Assembly (NCBI GenBank): GCA_963514005.1
Contig: OY740816.1
Span: 18,352,001 to 18,416,000, forward strand
DNA: 64,000 nt
Direction: 5' to 3'
DNA from: Raja brachyura
Lineage: Eukaryota
Of the stretch, positions 5,897-55,557 are shown in pieces. The position numbers were made by a program, and so were the translations under genes. The notes under the pieces were generated by a model that saw only the letters and a program-made list of their open reading frames with translations, was not told the origin of the DNA and made no database searches. Positions within the stretch are counted from its first letter, which is position 1. Every line of letters starts with the position of its first letter.

Positions 5897-26838
<20,942 letters not shown>

Positions 26839-28421
26839 TATCAGTTATCAGTAGCCCACTGAAAAAAAAGAATGAGATTAGTGCCAAATTACACCTTGTA
26901 CTAATAATTGGATCGCTAAATCAGAATATCCATTATCACTGATGCACCATGCAGGGAGGAACTACATGTGATGATTTATAGCAAAGATAGACGCAAAATG
27001 CTGGAGTAACTTAGCGGGTCAGGCAGCATCTCTGGAGAAAGAGTTAACCAGGGAGTTGCGAGGAAACGCTCACTGTGGAAGGCGGTAAGGGGTGGAGATG
27101 GTTTGTGGTGGGATCCCGTTGGAGGTGGCAGAAATTTTGGAGGATTATGTGTGTTCAATGGCAGTACTGAATGACTGCAACAATCCTTTGACTATAAAAC
27201 TCGATGAGGTACCTTGATTTTATAAGAAGTGGTGTAAAATTCAAGTATTTCCTTATTCATTCCGTGGATGATTTCCGGACTGTTTATTCTGCATCACACT
27301 GAAAAAACCCCTCTTCTAAATCAACAGGAAATACTTCCAAAAGACCAAAGTGAATACAATCGTCTCCAAAATTTTAATGGAGGCTCACTGAGGATAAATA
27401 TATCTTCAGTTCCTATGCTAAATGTGTTTGACGATGTTGGCTTAGCCTCTGATATTCAGCTCTCCCAAAAGCTAAATGTAATCAGCAGATAAGAACTTTG
27501 AACCCATTTGATCTCAGTGCCAGAAGATGAATTATTCAGACCCCATGGGGGGGGGGGAAATAATCAGTATGTGTAAAAATGTGCAATCCAGCTTGCTAAG
27601 ATCTGCTAATTAGGTGGTTATAATTTCCCTTGTTTATGGTTTCTCTGCTATTTTTTGTGAGAATTAATGAAGACAAAATGCAGCCCTAACCTATGATATA
27701 CAAATCTAACCAGTCAGGCCGAATTGGAAGTCTGGAACTAGAAATGTCAACAGAGGGCGCAGATCAATCAATGTTGTTTAACTGTATGGCTCATTTGTAA
27801 CAGTGTTAACTACGTTCTATCTCTCACGCACAATATAAAGTGCTAACCTCGACAGCAATCTTATCTGATGTCTGGCATGGCTCAAGGGTAGCAATCTTGC
27901 CTCCCTCCTCATAAGGTTATTGGATCAAGGTCCATCCTAGGATGGCACACCAGTCAGGGAATGTTGAGCAGGAGTCATCTATCAGATGTGTCATCAAGGC
28001 ATTGTTTTCTCTCTTAGGTGAAAGATTCCCACAGCATCATTTAATGAGATGAGCAGGATATAATCCATGACGTGTGATTGCACCGGAATGAGTGCATGGG
28101 AGATTCATAAGAGAAAATTATGTGATGATAGGCGAGAATGAGGATGGGCTGGGGGCGTTTTGATACAGAAGGTGCGTGGAGACTTAATTCAGACATACAG
28201 AGTGAAAAACAAGGAAGGAATATTTTTCCTGTTTGAGGAACCAATAATTCGGAGGTAAAGTTTGACATAAAGAATGAGAGGGGAATGAGGGAACTTTTAT
28301 TTATTCAAATGGTGTTAGAGGTCTAGAATTTGCTCCCTCAGAGTGAAAAGAAATAGGTAGACATCCTCGTTGCATTTAGAACATGCGTGAACATGTCCTG
28401 AGGAAGCAATGATTTGCAGGA

Positions 28422-28742: not shown

Positions 28743-31700
28743 CCTTCGATCAGGTACTGGGAATTTGAGTTAGGAGATGCAGAACTGGAATAAAAGCAAT
28801 GGGCCAAAAGGCCTTTTCCTAGATTTTGTTATGATTCTTTGACATCTTGGCCTATGTTTATCCATAATGATTAAAAGCAGATTATCTATATGTTAAGACA
28901 TTGCTCTTTGTGGGAACTCACTCAGTAAAGATTGGATGCTGATTTTCATCTATCACAATGACAGCACTTCAAAGTCTATCTCTTTTACTTCATTGACTGT
29001 GAAGTGATTTGGGAAGTTCTGAGGAGAGATACTGTAGGTGCAGTATTCAAAACATCTTTCTTATTCATGCTGGGCAGTTCAAACCAATAAGAATTTGAAA
29101 CTCTGCTCTATGATGATTAGGCAGTCTCAATGTTTAATGTTCTCTGTGTCATTCCTAACTGTCTCTCCATGTCATGTTGCCGCTTGCGGGCGGAGCACCA
29201 AGGCAAATTCCTTGTATGTGAATACTTGGCCAATAAACTTATTCATTCTTTCTATGACAGTTTCCCGCCTATGGTGACTCCTGACAGAAAACCTGTGGGA
29301 GAGTTATGATCAAATGGACATAGCTGTAAAATAAAGGTGCATAGAAAATAAGGGACCCCAAGGGATGCAGATGCACGAGACATTTAAGACAGAGGTGGAA
29401 AAATATTTGAAATTTAAAGAATTGAGGGGTGTGAGAAACTGGCACAAAAGAGGAGTTAAGGTCAGTATAGATCAGCTATGATCGTATTAAATAGCGGAGG
29501 GGTCCGGTGACCTGTACCTGCTTCCATTTTGGAAAAACACAAAGTGCTGGAGTAACTCAGTGGGACAGGCAGCACACCTGGAAAACATGGATAGCTAACG
29601 TTTCAGGTCGGATCCCTTCTTTAGACTGATCCTGCTTCTATTTTCCAGTGTTCTTATGAAATTGACAAAGTAGTGTTTTTTATAGGAACAGGGTTCAGAT
29701 GTTCAAAATTGATTTGTATCAATTCTTACAACAAAAATTATAAATGCTTTAGCTGACAGTGCAAGAAATTGATGAAGAACACCTTCAGAAGTTAGAATCG
29801 TTAAGGCACAGGAGGCCATTTGACCCATTGAGACTATGCTGGTTCTTCATCATTCAACTCAATTTGGTTGTCTGAAGAAAGATCTTGACCCGAAACATCA
29901 CCCATTCCTTCTCTCCAGAGATGCTGCCTGTCCCGCTGAGTTACTCCAGCATTTTGTGTCTATCCATGTTCTTTCACAACAGGCTTGCAAATAACTTTCC
30001 CTCAACCTTTTCTGAAAAGTATATTTTCACTCCTCTCAAAGGAGGCAATCTGCTGATTGTAACCACAGTTTAATAAAAAAACAATTTCCTTGTATTCCTT
30101 GTAATTCCTGCCAGCCCTTCATATTATTTGTATATCCATATAATTCTGTCCTCATTTCATCCAATAATGGGAACAATCTCTCTATTTACCCTATATAAAA
30201 CCATTAAAGTTAATTACATGGGTTAACGTTCCTTCCAAAAATTTCTTTCCATTTTGATGAAAATAATATTACTTTTCTCATGGCTACAGTAGCCTGAACA
30301 CGCAGGTACTGGTTTGTACAAGTCTGACACAACTCTCTTTGCTAATACAGAGTGAAACCTCAACCACTTCATGAATCACATTCCACACATTTTTCTCGCA
30401 AAGTCTCAGTTTCTGTGCCACAAAGAACCACCGATTAGTTTTTCTTGCCTACCTTCACGTTCTTTGCTCTGGTTGTTGATCCGTTAACCATAAGGTACAG
30501 CCATTTAGGGTGGAGGTTATAGTCAGAAGTGGCAGAACACCTCAACATAGCCCTGGGGAGCCGCACCTCCAGGGAAATCTATTAGCTGGCAAGACGCAAG
30601 GGGTCTGAAGAGAGTTGTCAGGTACACTCACACCTGATGGGGAGCTTAACCTCAGTGACGCAGCAAAGCCAGTCATTTTCTTATGCAACCCCTTAACAAA
30701 TAAAGTGGCAACTCTGATTCTATTTAGTGCTACGAGTCTACTGAGCATTTGAGAGGCACGGCACCCCCACAGAATGTGGAATATCCCAGTGCTATACTCC
30801 ACCCTTTGGCTTAGAGTAGAGGACACTTGACAGCAAACCTGCGTACCTTTAATGCATGTCATTCAGACCAGGAACTGGAAAGATTGTGCAAACAGTGCCC
30901 TTCCCTCTTGCAAATACCCAATCAAGATGACCAACCATAGGGGTTGCTCAGCAATCAAAACAACTAGAGCACTGCGCAGTACAATAGGAGTATTTGTGTA
31001 ATTGTGTACTTTTCATTTGTGATAATACCAGAGATGTTAAAAAAAAAAATAGCTGGGTATTAAACTGCCAAGGCCAGGGGAAGAAGAAAGTTCACAAGGG
31101 TTTTTCTGCATGGAAATATGCTCTTCAGCCAAACTTGTCCATGCCAACCAGCATGTCTCGTTATGTTAGACAAAAATGCTGGAGAAACTCAGCGGGTGCA
31201 GCAACATCTATGGAGTGAAGGAAATAGGCAACGTTTTGGGCCGAAAAACCCTTCTTCAGTCCAAAATGTTGCCTATTTCCTTTGCTCCATAGATGCTGCT
31301 GCACCCGCTGAGTTTCTCAAGCATTTTTGTCTACCTTCGATTTTTCAGCATCTGCAGTTCCTTCTTAAACATTCGGCCTCTTTTTGTTAATCCTATCAGT
31401 CTACATTTCACCCATATCCCCCAAAACATTTCCTTTCATCGTACCTGTCCAAATGTCTTTTAAATATTGCAATAATACCTGTCTCAATCACCTCCTCTGG
31501 CAGCTCGTTCCATATATGCATCACACTGTGGGTGCAGCTTGCTGCTCAGATTCCCTTAAACTCTTTCCTCCCTCATCTTAAACCTTTGTCTCCTAGTTTT
31601 AGACACACTTATTAACATCTATAAATTCAGCCCTTCCTGGGAGAAGAGTCCCTGCCTATTCAATCTCTCTTTAAACCTCGTCCTGGCAACATTCTTGTGA

Positions 31701-48084: not shown

Positions 48085-48244
48085 TGTTATGTATTGGTGC
48101 TCGAATCTGACTTAAAATAAGACTCGGAACACACCAGTAATTTAACATGATTGTTGTATTGAAATTGCCATCTTGAGTCTCACTGCGCATGCGTACAATC
48201 GCGCAAGTCATTCAATTATACCATTCATATTCTCATACACAACA
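48085..48244 (-). repeat. 3' LTR of Gypsy element
   Basis: tgttatgtattgg...catacacaaca; adjacent minus-strand polypurine tract aaaggtggaggag. Confidence 0.95.
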
Positions 48245-48357
48245 CTCCTCCACCTTTAACTTAGGCAGTTAACACAATTTCACTGTATATGATATTTTAC
48301 ACAAAATCCATACCGTAACACAAACATTTCTTTGATTATGCAAACATGACTTGATGT

Positions 48358-51300
48358 TTAAACCATTTTATCTGAGATATCAGGCTCTGGTTGTGATGTT
48401 GTGTTATCACTGTGGATGAAAGGTCCGTCACTCTCTGAAGTTTGTTCAGAATCTACACCTGCAGTTGGAGTAGGCAGAACTATCAGTGGCTCCTCGCTTG
48501 GTTGAACCACTTCTCCTTGTTGGACGTCGGTGTGCTCATCCCCTTTTGGCAAGTATACTCTCATTTGATCTACATGACGACGAACGACTCTTCCCTCACT
48601 CAACTTTACATTGAACATGACTTCACTGATGACTTCTGCTATCATTCCGTAAAGCCGAGTAGGACCTGATGTGAAGTTCTTGACCATGACATGATCATTC
48701 ACCTCAAAGACTCGTTTCTTGCTTCCTCGTTCTGCTGCCTGTTTCATTGAAGCTTGCTTCCTTCGGACAGGTTTACTTAGATCGGGTTGCAGACTGTCAA
48801 GTTGAGTGCGGATCTTTCATCTGAACATTAGTTCACTGGGTGACTTTCCAGTCGTTTCATGAGGTGTGATTCGGTACGTCACCAAGAACTTCTGGATCTT
48901 TAGTTCCAGGTCTGATCCTTTTCCTTTCTTCACACCTGCTTTCATCGTTTGTACACCTCTTTCGGCTAGTCCGTTGCTGGACAGGTGTTTGGGCGACAAT
49001 TGAATGAGGCAGATGTTGCTGCTGCTGAGGAATCTGGCAAATTCTTCAGACACAAACTGTGTACCGTTATCTGTGACCACCGTTTCCGGCAACCCATGAG
49101 TTGCAAACAACCGTCTCAGGGCAATCACTGTTGCTGCTGCCGTTGCATGTCACACCCGAATGGCTTCAATCCATTTGCTGTGAGCATCGATCACAATCAG
49201 CAAATTCTTATCGTTGAGGCCATAGTCACAGTGAATCCTACTCCACGGTTTCTCAGGAAACTTCCATGGATGAATTTGGGTTGCAACAGGACTATGTTGA
49301 CTCTGCTGACAGCTTGGACAACTACTCACTTGTTGTTCCAACTCTTTGTTGATTCCTGGCTTCATTTGCCAGGGTGCGTGCTATAAAGTTCTTCAAGGAT
49401 TCTAGTCCTCATCCCCATATTATCTGGGATGACCACTCGTGGTCCCCACAGGATTATGTCATCCTCCACTGACAGCTCTTCTTTCTTGCTGGCAAAGGGC
49501 TTTACTTCTTCTGGAAGATTCCTTGCACTTGGCCACCCTTTCATGACGTGGTTCTTCACCTTTGACAAAATTCTGTCCTTTTTGGTGGCTCTCTTCACTT
49601 CCTGTGCATCAACAGGGCATGTGTCCAGATCGGTGAGCATGTTCATGCATGCCTCCGGTGCTTCATCAAGCTCCGCGAGTTCAGGGTGATATCATGAAGA
49701 ATCTTCTTCGTGGATCGGCAAGCGTGACAATGCGTCTGCATTCTGGTGTTTCTTGCCTTCTCGGACTATTTTGTAACTGTAGGCCGACAGGATTATATGC
49801 TATCTTGCTACACGGGCAGAAGCCATTGGGCTGGCAGGCTTGTGGTCTCCAAAGAGTCCATGAGAGGCTTGTGATCAGTCACAATGGTGAAAGACCTCCC
49901 ATGTAACTGCTTGTGGAACTTCTTCAGTCCGAAGATTATGGATAAACCCTCCTTTTCATATTGTGCGTAGTTCACTTCGCTGGGCTTGAGAGTGCGTGAG
50001 GCAAAAGCTATCGGACGTTCTTGTCCATCTGAATCCACATGGCTTATCACAGCACCTAAGCCATAGGGGCTTGCATCCGTTTGGAGCAGGATGGGTTTAG
50101 TTGGATCACAATGTGTCAGCACACATCACTCTGAAGAAGACGCTTGGATCTCTGGAATGCCTGCTCTTGTTCCTTTCCCCATTTGAACTTGGGATCAGGC
50201 TCGCTGCTTCTCCCACTCTTTGAATCTGCTGATCTATACTCATCCTTCAGCATTAGAGTCAATGGTGTAATCTCCTTTGACAGGTTGGGTATAAACTTCC
50301 TGTAATACCCAAGTAAGCCTAGGTATACCTGGAGTTGGCTTTGGTTCACAGGCAGCTTTGCTTCCCGCACCGCATCAACTTTATTTTGAAGAGGGCGAAG
50401 ACCATACTTGTTCAGTCCATGTCCGAGATAGTCGACTGACTCTTGCATCAGTGCACACTTCTCCTTCTTCAGACATAACCCACTGGTTTCTAGTCTTGAC
50501 AGGACCACTTCCAGGTTCCTGAGGTGCTCTTCGTCAGTCTTTTCGCTGATGATGATATCATCAAGATACGGCTTGCACATGGGAATATCTACTAGCAGGC
50601 TCTCCATTGCTCTCTGGAACATGGTTGGTGCACTGGATATCCCAAAGGGTAATCTAGTATACTCGAAGAGACCTTTGTGCGTATTGATTGTGGTGAACCT
50701 CCGAGCTTCAGGGTCTAACTCTATCTGATGATAGCCATGGGAAAGGTCTAATTTAGAGAACTTTTCTCCTCCTTCTAGTTCCTGCAGGAGATCCTCCAAG
50801 GTTGGAAGGGAATACTGTTCAACTTTCAGCACCTTATTTGCTGTGAGCTTGTAATTGCCGCATACTCTCATACTCCCATTCGGTTTTGGAACAGCTATGA
50901 TTGGGCATGTGAAAGCTGCTGTCTTCAATGGCTTGATAATGCTATCCTGCAGCAATTCATCCAATGCGGCATCAATCTGCTTTCTAGCACCATATGAAAC
51001 AGGAGCTGCCTTGTAAAACTTTGCTCCACTGTTTTCGTCTTGTGGATACACTTTGGCTTGGTATCCCTTCAGTACTCCATGGGTGCTGTTATCAAACAGT
51101 TTAGCGTGTTTGTTGAGTACTGTGTTCATGGCATCTTGCAAACTGTGTATACTACTCAGTGGACTTAGGCTTGGATCCGGCGTGTTCTGGCTGGCTAAAT
51201 TTAACAGCAATCCAGGGTACTTGCTCAACCAGTCTCTTCCCAATAGGCTTGCACCTTTCTTTACTACCACTGGGGTCAGCGTTTCTGGCCTCCTGTGAGG

Positions 51301-52340
51301 TTCGAGCTGTACCTGTACCGCTGCTTGTCCATAGATGTCAACCTTCTCGCCTGTGTAGGATTTCAGCTTGAGGCTACAGGGATCTGGTCTGGGGTCCTGA
51401 CCGAGTATTTTGAAGACTTCTGGTACGATAGTCCATGGACTTCCAGTGTCAACTTCTAGTTGTACCTCCCTGCCGTTCACTGTTAAAGTGGCTGTATACG
51501 GGTCAGAGTTCGTCAACTTGTTGATCGATTCATCTTCCAAGTGGTTCATGCTTCCTTCTGATGAATTCGAATCAGTCTCCTCCAAGTGATTTGCTTTTTT
51601 CCGGAATTGTCCCCTCCTCCGCTGGTCGCCTCTAACAGCATCACACTGGCTTTTGGTGTGACCCGTTCCCGAGCACTTGAAGCACCTACCATCTCGAAAT
51701 TGACACGTCGCTGGCTCATGGCTGCCGCCACATCTCCAGCACTTCTTGGAGTATTGGACCTTTTCTCTGGATGCCCTTTGTGGACTCTTTAGTCTTCTTT
51801 AGTCCAGCCGCCTTCCTTTGAAGCTGATGGACGGAGGTAGCATCATCTTGTTTAGCAACCTCCATCACTGTTGACTTTGTTCTCGAAGGTTAACTTTGGT
51901 GTACCCAACAGTTTTCGCTGGATGTTAACATCTGCACATCCTACCACCAATCTATCTCTTAGCATATTCTCCAGTTCCTTAAAATTACACCCATCACTTA
52001 ACTGTCGAAGCTTTGCTATGAACTGAGGGATTGTTTCATTTGCTTTTATGCATGTATAGAATCGATATCTTTGCACTATTTCTGTTGGTTTTGGCGAGAA
52101 ATAGCAATTAACGCCTCCGTACATTCCTTGTACGTTTTACTAGCGGGCTTAGCTGGCTGCAGCAATGCACGTTGGGTGCGATAACCCTTGCTTCCTAAAC
52201 CTGTAAGGAAAAATGCTCTTTGCTTCTCTTCTGAAGTGATATCCTTTGAAGTGAACCAAGCCTCTAAGATTTAGGTCCACTCCTCAAAAGTATAACCACA
52301 TTCTAACTGGGGGCACATTCCCAACGATTGGATTAGCCAT
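48358..52340 (-). pseudogene. Frameshifted gag-pol of the Gypsy element
   Basis: gag (QRYRFY..LRDRLVVGC), protease VDTGS, RT KLDLSHGYHQI..YLDD, RNaseH TDASPYGLGAV, integrase HPG..CPSC, HCDY, TDNGTQF, NGLAER; split across ORFs by stops and frameshifts. Confidence 0.93.
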
Positions 52341-52865
52341 GGTTACACTGTTGCTACTCAGTTACACAACGTGGCGTCCTCTTACACAATGTCCTCTTCA
52401 ATGAACTTAATTCCTTTACAAAATCACTGAGCAATTATCACATAAATTCACTACCAATAACTCTCTTATACTAATCGATTTATACTATACCAATATAATA
52501 TACTAATATAATAATTGATTTACACCAATATACTAATATTAATAATATACTAATATATTTCAAGCCATATACATGCAATGCACACATATATCCTCTAAAT
52601 TATTGTTCATCAAACAGTTTAACGTGTTTGTTGAGTACTGTGTTCGCTAAATTCGTAAAGTCCGGGTTTTGCTGCAATGAAATCACCAGTCGTCTTGACT
52701 GTAGCCCAAACTGTCTCAGGACTCCAGTGCCTCGGTGACATCTCGGCTGGCCTCACGGGCTGGCTTTGCTGGCTTCACGGGCTGGCTTTGATGGCTTCAC
52801 GGGCTGGCTTTGCTGGTAGCATCAGCTCACTTTCAGGCTATGCGACGTACAGCTGGCGACATGGT

Positions 52866-53246
52866 ATAGAAACATCAAAATTAGGTGCAGGAGTAGGCCA
52901 TTCGGCCCTTCGAGCCTGCACCGCCATTCAATATGATCATGGCTGATCATCCAACTCAGTATCCCGTACCTGCCTTCTCTCCATACCCTCTGATCCCCTT
53001 AGCCACAAGGGCCACATCTAACTCCCTCTTAAATATAGCCAATGAACTGGCCTCAACTGCCCTCTGTGGCAGAAAGTTCCAGAGACTCGCCACTCTTTGT
53101 GTGAAAAAAGTCTTTCTCATCTCGGTCTTAAAGGGTTTCTCCCTTATCCTTAAGCTGTGACCCCTTGACCTGGACTTCCCCAACATCGGGAACAATCTTC
53201 CTGCATCTAGCCTGTCCAACCCTTTAAGGACTTTGTAAGTTTCTAA
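52866..53246 (-). mobile_element. CR1/HER1 3' fragment nested in the Gypsy leader
   Basis: DRLDAGRLFPMLGKSRSRGHSLRI..; near-identical to 43060-43415. Confidence 0.9.
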
Positions 53247-53600
53247 ACTTTTTTTTTGGTAGACCTTCGGCTAGGTAAGTTGATCGCATCTGGGCCGCAC
53301 CGCTTACCGATGTTTCCTTATGTCATCACCGGTGCTGGTCTACTCTCGGAGACTCGGCTTCTCGTCGTCGGTGGTGGTTGCTTGACTTGGCCGTGGCTGC
53401 ACGGCACTGGAAACTCAATCGAAACCTGCTGTCAAGGTTACTTCGCTGAGCTGTTCTACCCCGCTACAGCACTGCTTGTTGCATGGCGATCATGCGTTGC
53501 AGTCCCACATTTTTCGCGCCAAAATACATAACTCGTCTTTAACTTCAGGTCCGATCGTGCGAAAAGCCTCAATTCAACCGCAATACTGTTCCTGTTAGCG

Positions 53601-53620
53601 GAATCCCATCCTCGTCACCA
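53601..53620 (-). other. Primer-binding site complementary to tRNA-Ser(GCT) 3' end
   Basis: Minus strand TGGTGACGAGGATGGGATTC, 3 nt inside the 5' LTR; matches the vertebrate Ser-GCT 3' end (..GAATCCCATCCTCGTCGCCA, from memory) with one mismatch. Confidence 0.85.
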
Positions 53621-53623
53621 AAT

Positions 53624-53783
53624 TGTTATGTATTGGTGCTGGAATCTGAGTGAAAATAAGACTCGGAACACACCAGTAATTTAACATGCTTGTTGTATTG
53701 AAATTGCCATCTTGAATCTTACTGCGCATGCGTACAATCGCGCAAGTCATTCAATTATACTATTCATATTCTCATACACAACA
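53624..53783 (-). repeat. 5' LTR of Gypsy element
   Basis: Same sequence as 48085-48244 with about 7 mismatches in 160 bp (counted by eye). Confidence 0.95.
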
Positions 53784-53814
53784 AAAAATCAAATAATGTA
53801 GCGGCGCCTTCTGG

Positions 53815-53875
53815 CGCACGCAGGTATCGAACCCGGCGTTCGGAAGTCGCGGTCACATGACTCGGGAAGGGCTGC
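53815..53875. promoter_or_regulatory. Small CpG-rich motif cluster: B-box-like GGTTCGATACC (minus), ETS CGGAAGT, E-box GTCACATGAC
   Basis: Motifs read directly in the sequence; function is inferred. Confidence 0.4.
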
Positions 53876-54299
53876 TCGTTTTTCACGCGGTTTCGCTTTC
53901 GCGCGGCAGTTGAGTGCTGACCACTGTTATGTCCAAGACGTGTTGTAAGAGGAACCTGTGAGCTAAGAAGCTATTTTGAGAATAAAATAAGTTGCAAAAC
54001 CTAGTAGTCGTTCTTGCGACCGCCAAAATATATTGAATCAACCTATTTTTCAAGCCCTTATCAATAGGGTTTTGCCCGGAAACGTTGCCGATTTCCTTCG
54101 CTGCATAGATGCTGCTGCACCCGCTGAGTTTCTCCAGCACTTTTGTCTACCTTTTATCAATAGACTTGTATGCTCTGCGTACTATAGCACGTAATAAATA
54201 ATGTAATGTTGGCCACTCCTCGACATATTTCGAAATAATATGTTATAACACCTTTTTAATAATAATATTTGTCGGCATTGAAAGGCAGCGTAGGATAGT

Positions 54300-54560
54300 T
54301 TTAACCCGCTGTCGCTGCTGCCGCCGCGTTATGTGCATGGACTCACTCAGGTCGAAGATGACGGGGCGAGCCGCTGCCGCCGCCATTTTGAACGCAACGG
54401 TCGCGGCGCGCGCCGCCATTCGAACCAAACGGCCGTTGGCCCCGAGGGCGTTGCCAATGGCAACGGCAACGGCTCGAGCGCGCCTTCGGTCACCCCCTCA
54501 CATCGGAGCCCGGCCGAGGAGCTCCGAGCGGACACACACACCCACACTCTCACACTAACT
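54300..54560 (-). promoter_or_regulatory. CpG island / probable promoter and first exon of the minus-strand gene
   Basis: High GC and CpG density; YY1-type CGCCATTTT at 54381-54389 and CGCCATT at 54414-54420; strong minus-strand donor A|gtgagt at 54347/54346; divergent from the tRNA. Confidence 0.7.
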
Positions 54561-54751
54561 TTAAAACAAAACAATGAAACTTTATCTAATAAGCGAAATG
54601 GAAGCTCGTTTACGATTCCGAACCTCCCGGAGTCAAAACATTTAGACGCCACCGTTGCAAGGCGATGAGAATCGACAGAAAATGATAGGCGATTATCGCA
54701 CGCTTCTGATGCAAGAATGAATAGACTATTTCCAGCTTGGATCCAACAGGT

Positions 54752-54836
54752 GGCTCCGTGGCGCAATGGATAGCGCATTGGACTTCTAGTGGATGAAGCG
54801 ATTCAAAGGTTCCGGGTTCGAGTCCCGGCGGAGTCG
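54752..54836 (+). tRNA. TRR-TCT: tRNA-Arg(TCT) with 12-nt intron (54789-54800)
   Basis: GGCTCCGTGGCGCAATGGATAGCGCATTGGACTTCTA|gtggatgaagcg|ATTCAAAGGTTCCGGGTTCGAGTCCCGGCGGAGTCG; A and B boxes, canonical 37/38 intron, TTTTT terminator at 54842-54846. Confidence 0.97.
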
Positions 54837-55557
54837 AGTTCTTTTTATCTCCAATAAATAGAATAGAATTAACTTTCGCAATAATTTATAAAGACTCAGA
54901 ATACTTATATACATTTTAGATGTATTAATGCAAAACCCGTGCTTTATGCCTGCTTTAGATTAGCCTAACCAAATGAGGGAATACATCTTTATAGAAGCAA
55001 GGTACTGCAGAAATCTTTATAATGTATTTTAGAATTATAATTATGAAATATTATTAACAAATATATATTAATTCATTTTTTTCTCGAGGTTTATATCCTG
55101 TTTTGATTAACCAATTGGGGTGAGGGGGTAAGGGGGGGGGACATAAATCTTTATTTTAATTATAATAATAAAAGATAAATCAAATATTTTAAAATATAAA
55201 TTTATTTTTGTCTTTTGAATCTGTATCCTGCTTTGATTAACTAGATTGGGGGAGTAATAAAAAAATAATTTTATAAATATTCTCCAAATAGGGGCTAAAT
55301 AATATAATTTGGATAATAAAGTTCAATTTTTTGTTGTTATTAGGAATTGTTGTAGGAAAGCAGTATCAAGTTGAAGTACATTTTGTAGATTTTAAAAGAA
55401 TAGCTTTTTTTTTCAAAATATGCATTAACAATATTCTAATCTGGTGATAAAACAAATAATTCCTTTGGAAAGATCAAAAATACTGAGGGAATTAAGGCAA
55501 ATTCAGCTTGAAATACTTAACAAAACCTGGCATCAAATCCAGAGGGAAACAAAATAA

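Follow-up and report, generated by a model that had tools for sequence, protein, structure and literature searches.

In the 64,000-nucleotide stretch of the Raja brachyura genome analysed here (the window, on contig C38), an intron-containing tRNA-Arg(TCT) gene lies upstream of, and on the strand opposite to, a gene of the NSP family. A sequence-only reading of the window held that human tRNA-Arg-TCT-1-1 is placed in the same way at the NSP-family gene BCAR3, and proposed that the arrangement is older than the vertebrate genome duplications. The locus thus raises the question of whether a tRNA gene and its protein-coding neighbor were duplicated together and retained on two chromosomes. We propose, with a probability of about 0.8, that the tRNA genes linked to SH2D3A and to BCAR3 are ohnologs which arose in the genome duplication that made BCAR3 and SH2D3A themselves.

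Rfam (56.9 bits) and ARAGORN run with introns both place a tRNA-Arg(TCT) gene of the Arg-TCT-1 isodecoder at 54752-54836 on the plus strand, as that reading had claimed, and this is the only tRNA that the two recovered in the window. Exon 1 (54752-54788, +) and exon 2 (54801-54836, +) are separated by a 12-nt intron (54789-54800, +), which ARAGORN positions 3' of position 37. The stems of the cloverleaf and the anticodon are intact, as are the internal promoter elements, presumed from the usual consensus to be an A box at 54759-54769 and a B box at 54815-54825, and a T5 Pol III terminator read from the sequence at 54842-54846 (+). Judged by these sequence features, it is a genuine, intact intron-containing gene. 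Sequence comparison further identified a conserved 10-nt leader or start region immediately upstream (54742-54751, +), which is identical at 10/10 positions to that of human Arg-TCT-1-1 and forms part of an 11-nt match to a metagenome contig (L085). The human sequence was taken from the row of a supplement that gives an Arg-TCT-1-1 construct with its flanks (PMC13373322); compared by eye with that row, the exons of the window gene are equal, the construct's engineered anticodon aside, and the intron is identical at 8/12 positions, in line with what the sequence-only reading had stated about the human exons and intron.

The 3' part of the intron can pair with positions 32-35 of the anticodon loop. 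A C32-G pair (with intron position -3) is present in 8/8 skate and vertebrate rows, long-intron types included, and the U33-A pair is likewise present in all eight rows, again with the long-intron types; being invariant, these pairs indicate compatibility with pairing rather than covariation. Single-strand folding of the pre-tRNAs gave no signal above background (z -0.07 to -0.40). The suggested constraint on the intron appears to reflect largely the known, standard anticodon-intron pairing.

The protein-coding gene of the window occupies 5897-26858 on the minus strand, with its start codon at 26838. Its approximate exons (all -) lie at 26731-26858, 25289-25735 (SH2), 23823-23921, 20269-20905 and 17464-17580, with further exons at 16436-16612, 12985-13101, 11006-11206 and 5897-6070 (Cdc25-like/NSP domain). 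The SH2 exon and the C-terminal Cdc25-like domain match the structures of BCAR3 and SH2D3C. The best match to the SH2 exon is from Amblyraja radiata (95%), which marks the animal as a skate rather than a shark. Of 21 candidates across the genome, 3 matched as NSP genes, one each on C38 (the window), C10 and C35. In a tree of 32 rows (the 3 skate genes and 29 proteins picked from 240 listed), which is unrooted, built by a quick search without bootstraps, contains no mammalian SH2D3A and gives the skate BCAR3 gene of C10 a long branch, three clades with SH-aLRT values of 99-100 each hold both cartilaginous and bony vertebrates. Among these, the window gene sits with the coelacanth 'SH2 domain containing 3A', the C10 gene with tetrapod BCAR3 and the C35 gene with SH2D3C; the coelacanth and chimaera records in the first of these clades bear the name SH2D3A. 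A tree constrained to unite the SH2D3A rows of chondrichthyans with skate BCAR3 was rejected (AU p=1.6e-8), which rules out a duplication from skate BCAR3 confined to chondrichthyans. By its sequence the window gene is therefore SH2D3A, of the NSP1 type, and not BCAR3, the clade and the neighboring TRIP10 gene agreeing with the original assignment. Since each clade holds cartilaginous and bony vertebrates, the BCAR3/SH2D3A split is older than the shark/bony-fish divergence. No SAM-domain exons were found at skate SH2D3A (window 26858-54200); a SAM exon is present in the coelacanth and some teleost SH2D3A orthologs, and also in skate BCAR3.

A DNA search of the genome with the window tRNA returned at least 15 matches among 15 candidates, five of them at 95% identity or more over the whole gene. 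One of these is a twin on C10 (62,253,994-62,254,079, -), located between DNTTIP2 and BCAR3, which points away from BCAR3, with 58 kb between it and the first coding exon of that gene. The twin matches the window tRNA at every exon position and at 9/10 leader positions; its 13-nt intron shares 9/13 columns with the window intron and, by eye against the human row, is identical at 11/13 columns to that of Arg-TCT-1-1 (PMC13373322 supplement). The orientation of the tRNA relative to the NSP gene is the same at the SH2D3A and BCAR3 loci. Thus the proposed survival of the tRNA at two paralogous loci holds within the skate genome itself. When 864 kb surrounding the three NSP loci were scanned with a covariance model, only three hits emerged: the window gene, the C10 twin and, 8 kb from the twin, a degenerate copy. 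The model gave no tRNA at SH2D3C in the 400 kb of C35:14.75-15.15 Mb, for which the scan had been extended by 200 kb on the upstream side of that gene, and C35 has no row among the matches listed genome-wide (at least 15 plus at least 15); a third ohnolog in that interval was accordingly rejected. Between the C38 and C10 flanks only repeats and the tRNA match, with no similarity beyond the 10-nt leader.

Gene order at the three loci supports the same picture. An F-BAR gene lies tail-to-tail with each of the three skate NSP genes: CIP4/TRIP10-like on C38, FBP17-like on C35, and closer to CIP4 than to FBP17 on C10, where it is assigned to FNBP1L by position. Compared by one exon each, the C38 and C10 genes are both nearer CIP4 and the C35 gene nearer FBP17. 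On C38 the order is TRIP10 (+), SH2D3A (-), tRNA (+) and then a NOTCH gene about 225 kb to the right of the tRNA. On C10 it is an ABCA-type gene (62.01-62.09 Mb), DNTTIP2 (62.244), the tRNA (62.254, -), BCAR3 (+) and the F-BAR gene (-), with a calponin gene also on this contig; we take the DNTTIP2, ABCA-type and calponin order to be that of human 1p22. Of the flanking synteny named in advance, TRIP10/VAV1 against FNBP1L/DNTTIP2, the adjacency of TRIP10 held and DNTTIP2 was found at the C10 BCAR3 gene, but the VAV gene of C38 is 2.2 Mb away and hence linked rather than adjacent. Neither ABCA7 nor calponin was found near the C38 tRNA. A Pfam scan of 136 ORFs (128 of 983 candidates to the right of the tRNA, 6 F-BAR-gene controls and 2 island ORFs) recovered one RT fragment and missed the F-BAR controls, and is therefore insensitive. 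The order of F-BAR gene, NSP gene and tRNA is thus common to the C38 and C10 loci, and homologous tRNAs occupy matching positions in paralogous synteny blocks.

The remaining close matches bear on an alternative scenario, namely that retroposition or transposition of the BCAR3-linked gene in the cartilaginous-fish lineage produced the window tRNA at a later date and happened to place it upstream of the paralog. Retrocopies of the pre-tRNA do exist in this genome. Four scattered copies (C38:21.99 Mb, C38:16.83 Mb, C1:130.47 Mb and C10:62.262 Mb; L002, L003, L004 and L006, about 1500-1590) each consist of 1-5 leader bases and an unspliced tRNA followed, in 4/4 cases, by the in-sense 3' end of a CR1-type ORF2, and two further degenerate copies abut SINE or LINE pieces. 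From this structure we read L002, L003, L004 and L006 as intron-containing pre-tRNAs retroposed by template switching. The intron has 12 nt in three of them and is the C10 intron in the fourth, and the trailer of the window gene recurs in two; the four would thus be retro-chimeras derived from two active source genes. The concern that the isodecoder is multicopy and scattered is therefore borne out solely by such CR1 fusions. Because three of the retrocopies carry the 12-nt intron length and two its trailer, the window tRNA appears as a source gene rather than a product. Its 3' end has no LINE tail or repeat, it retains the 10 upstream bases common to human where the retrocopies keep 1-5, and only the C38 and C10 copies combine unique 3' flanks with a full leader. 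Chance co-location comes to 0.7e-4 to 4e-4 under four assumptions, about 1e-4, in a model in which one of 6-20 random copies lands in the right orientation no further than 30-200 kb upstream of either of two paralogs, insertion bias being ignored. The SH2D3A-side copy being known from one genome, with none listed on chicken chr28, is in keeping with a later arrival, which we nevertheless consider quite unlikely. The twin with the same exons and orientation, the identification of the other copies as retrocopies and the low chance estimate together make it well supported that the tRNA genes form an ohnolog pair older than the shark/bony-fish split, although the absence of a copy from the 400 kb scanned at SH2D3C, the retroposition of this tRNA in skates and the single genome behind the SH2D3A-side copy count against it.

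Two other kinds of skate Arg(TCT) gene were observed. L007, L008, L010, L011, L013 and L015 (C39, C45 and C50, with four on C50) form a second group with 17-18-nt introns. An intronless tRNA-Arg(TCT) at L014:1498-1571 (C24:20.11 Mb) presumably resembles the mammalian neuron-enriched Arg-TCT-4-1, and suggests that an isodecoder like the latter is also older than the shark/bony-fish split.

Human tRNA-Arg-TCT-1-1 is mapped to chr1:93,847,572-93,847,657 (+) in hg38 (PMC6775249) and to chr1:94,313,129-94,313,213 in another source (PMC4662488). By the latter coordinates, and provided that the two sources use the same build, it is 662 bp (about 0.7 kb) from miR-760 (94,312,388-94,312,467, +), which is labelled intergenic in the source of its coordinates (PMC3853583) and described as antisense-intronic in BCAR3 by others (PMC6841734; PMC4523495). 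On that proviso the published maps agree with the placement of the human tRNA next to BCAR3. A pattern scan recovered one further locus among metagenomes (the L085 contig) and none in bacterial and viral collections. L085 represents vertebrate host DNA, probably of a bird, and carries the same tRNA gene and leader, a 12-nt intron and CpG-rich DNA on both sides. A strong splice donor at L085:207-215 (+), on the strand opposite to the tRNA and about 60 nt past its 3' end, suggests that intron 1 of an antisense Pol II transcript may contain the tRNA at that locus.

In the species sheets of one supplement, 7/7 birds have a single 86-87-nt Arg-TCT gene, that of chicken being on chr8, and the five tRNAs given for chicken chr28 include no Arg-TCT gene (PMC8044555 supplement). 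The gene content of C38 and the LER29-LOC19-GGA28 trio (PMC10115646) point to chr28 as its chicken counterpart; a loss must therefore be assumed under ohnology, and the SH2D3A-side copy appears to have been lost in birds. The same supplement gives a 93-nt Arg-TCT gene at chicken chr17:5,519,260-5,519,352, on the 1R partner of chr8, which by its length should bear an intron. This gene may mark an older sister locus, but skate C35 yielded no counterpart.

The block duplication predates the gnathostome crown by the protein tree, the tRNA itself holding no dating signal. GGA8 and GGA17 have been described as a 1R pair (PMC7269912), and the scores of the F-BAR exons put C38 with C10; for these reasons we favor BCAR3 and SH2D3A as the younger, 2R pair. 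The proposal that the tRNA unit predates the vertebrate genome duplications can thus be followed back to the BCAR3/SH2D3A split but not beyond it, because SH2D3C has no copy in the 400 kb scanned and the tree and the loci cover jawed vertebrates. Under the ohnolog model, a single tRNA gene would have stood 5' of the ancestral NSP gene and would have been copied along with the surrounding chromosome segment, probably at the 2R event of jawed vertebrates. Each copy would then have acted as an ordinary Pol III gene, with internal A and B boxes, a short leader, a T-run terminator and a TSEN-type intron. Selection for the supply of tRNA-Arg(UCU) would have retained each copy, likely helped by nearby unmethylated CpG-rich chromatin: the exons would be kept by tRNA function, the 3' part of the intron by its pairing to the anticodon loop, and the leader probably by the needs of Pol III initiation and processing. 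Because retrocopies carry its intron length and trailer, the SH2D3A-side copy was presumably transcribed in the germ line in the past.

A CpG island with its core at about 54291-54560 (65% GC, 35 CpG, CpG o/e 1.25 against 0.44 across the window) is single-copy in the genome (1/1 candidates) and lies on the 5' side of the tRNA at a distance of about 190-460 bp. The tRNA had been described as lying some 200-400 bp from a divergent CpG island and first exon; the island is indeed there, but the start codon of SH2D3A is 27.5 kb from it, and the sole candidate donor in the island (54346) is weak, falling below the cut-off of a rough donor matrix. In contigs assembled from four sequencing runs that we take to be RNA, a non-coding 5' exon of SH2D3A (30453-30591 or longer, -) is spliced to the start-codon exon ending at 26858 in 4/4 sets, and then to downstream exons. 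These contigs end at 30518, 30527, 30543 and 30591 with no loose end, which speaks neither for nor against an exon further upstream; none in the four runs joins SH2D3A to the island.

We lean toward the island being an upstream promoter of SH2D3A, a candidate assignment that we regard as somewhat probable. The interval from the gene to the tRNA has no other CpG island that is single-copy, and no other coding gene was found there. It contains two motifs that we take to be YY1-like (54379-54388, exact, and 54412-54421, both -); they are oriented toward SH2D3A, and the five matches across the window are not above chance (mean 2.45 expected; 13/100 shuffles as high). A lesser but serious possibility is that the ohnology stands while the island is the open-chromatin island of the tRNA itself or the promoter of a non-coding RNA, with SH2D3A starting near 30.6 kb. 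The weak donor fits such a start, and the contig of run X1 is colinear to 30591 without a join, passing unspliced 40 nt beyond the candidate acceptor at 30552, but a second acceptor-like site is present at about 30605. The N-terminal extensions of homologs gave no match in the window upstream of the start exon; further N-terminally extended isoforms gave chance-level matches only, and no chondrichthyan one tested matched the island ORF, which again fits a start near 30.6 kb.

Two other segments were discarded as promoters: 21.6-22.1 kb, which is a MITE-like repeat, and the CpG-rich 53.25-54.03 kb (53250-54030), which consists of the end of an LTR transposon and a dispersed repeat. The transposon is a Ty3/gypsy-like LTR retrotransposon (48085-53783, -) situated between island and gene and not part of the tRNA unit, with 160-bp LTRs (48085-48244 and 53624-53783) that are 96% identical. 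Its pol is broken by stops, and beside the right LTR is a primer-binding-like site that presumably matches tRNA-Ser. The 232-bp dispersed repeat at 53797-54028 (694 candidates, 85-91% identity) carries promoter-like motifs and could be mistaken for a promoter. The 482-bp MITE-like element (21612-22093), with terminal inverted repeats of about 47 bp, has 40 scored loci, the window included, at 99-100% identity among 1757 genome-wide candidates; its spread is a very recent burst.

The sequence-only reading went further and suggested that the tRNA and promoter form a conserved Pol III/Pol II coupled or insulator module. In such a scenario the pair would have the same origin but would be retained for setting NSP expression, or bounding it, as a coupled unit or a TFIIIC insulator. 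Position and orientation are kept at both skate loci and in human, CpG-rich DNA adjoins all three sequenced copies, and Pol II marks near active tRNA genes have been reported as a general feature (PMC11065635). Yet the CpG-rich side differs between the loci: at SH2D3A the island is on the 5' side of the tRNA (o/e 1.41, the 3' side having 3 CpG), at the BCAR3 locus of the skate the richer side is 3' (o/e 0.84 against 0.46), and in L085 it is both. The flanks have no similarity beyond the leader, the first coding exons are 27.5 kb (SH2D3A) and 58 kb (BCAR3) from the tRNA, and chicken chr28 has no copy. Mice lacking Arg-TCT-1-1 have been bred and analysed, and the name Bcar3 does not occur in the main text of that study (PMC11065635). 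A conserved coupled or insulator module is thus unsupported, and retention for this reason strikes us as improbable; the tRNA probably just travels with the conserved synteny and does not regulate the NSP gene. We likewise give little credence to the strongest form of the idea, in which the tRNA-Arg(UCU) gene would regulate the NSP locus in cis, having held open or bounded the BCAR3/SH2D3A promoter as a Pol III/TFIIIC unit since before the jawed-vertebrate doubling. Were it true, the tRNA, leader and intron would have been frozen for more than 450 million years at two paralogous loci, and the Arg-TCT-1-1 knockout mouse would misregulate Bcar3. Since that mouse exists, the effect of a lone tRNA gene on a Pol II neighbor is cheap to test (PMC11065635).

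The tRNA, the NSP family and ohnologs as a kind are already known, and the tRNA ohnolog pair is a new instance; a search of the mainly open-access literature found no report of this tRNA/NSP pairing or of vertebrate tRNA ohnologs. Yeast tRNA genes have been linked to breakpoints, which is a different matter (PMC2675101). The turnover of vertebrate tRNA genes is fast; one survey counted only 5.5% as deeply rooted among Sauropsida (PMC8044555). A tRNA pair traceable to a genome doubling would be a dated natural experiment on which pre-tRNA bases (leader, intron, trailer) are under selection, and the Arg-TCT family, which is of medical interest, likely includes at least one pair of copies that stems from whole-genome duplication.

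Several known systems resemble parts of this locus. In what we take to be the CLGM or 'MHC' paralogon, on assumed human map positions, the 2R ohnologs FNBP1L/TRIP10/FNBP1, BCAR3/SH2D3A/SH2D3C, NOTCH and VAV agree with the skate in gene order and orientation on three chromosomes; in contrast to these known ohnologs, what has stayed in duplicate here, at 2/3 loci, is a tRNA gene whose exons have not changed. The human and mouse tRNA-Arg-TCT-1-1 (n-Tr22) at BCAR3 in 1p22 shares with the window gene identical exons, the 10-nt leader, a 12-nt intron (8/12) and a position upstream of, and on the opposite strand to, an NSP-family gene; however, the window copy flanks SH2D3A, and the true ortholog is the skate C10 copy with its 13-nt intron and DNTTIP2 neighbor. 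Small-RNA/LINE chimeric retropseudogenes, presumably of the U6-L1 type, are like the four scattered skate copies, where a pre-tRNA runs in sense into the 3' end of a CR1 element, except that the skate chimeras retain the tRNA intron, and the window gene, unlike such retropseudogenes, has no LINE tail. Finally, as with tRNA genes beside Pol II promoters and tDNA-TFIIIC insulators, an active-looking tRNA gene lies within 0.5 kb of a CpG island, but the island geometry here is not conserved between the loci.
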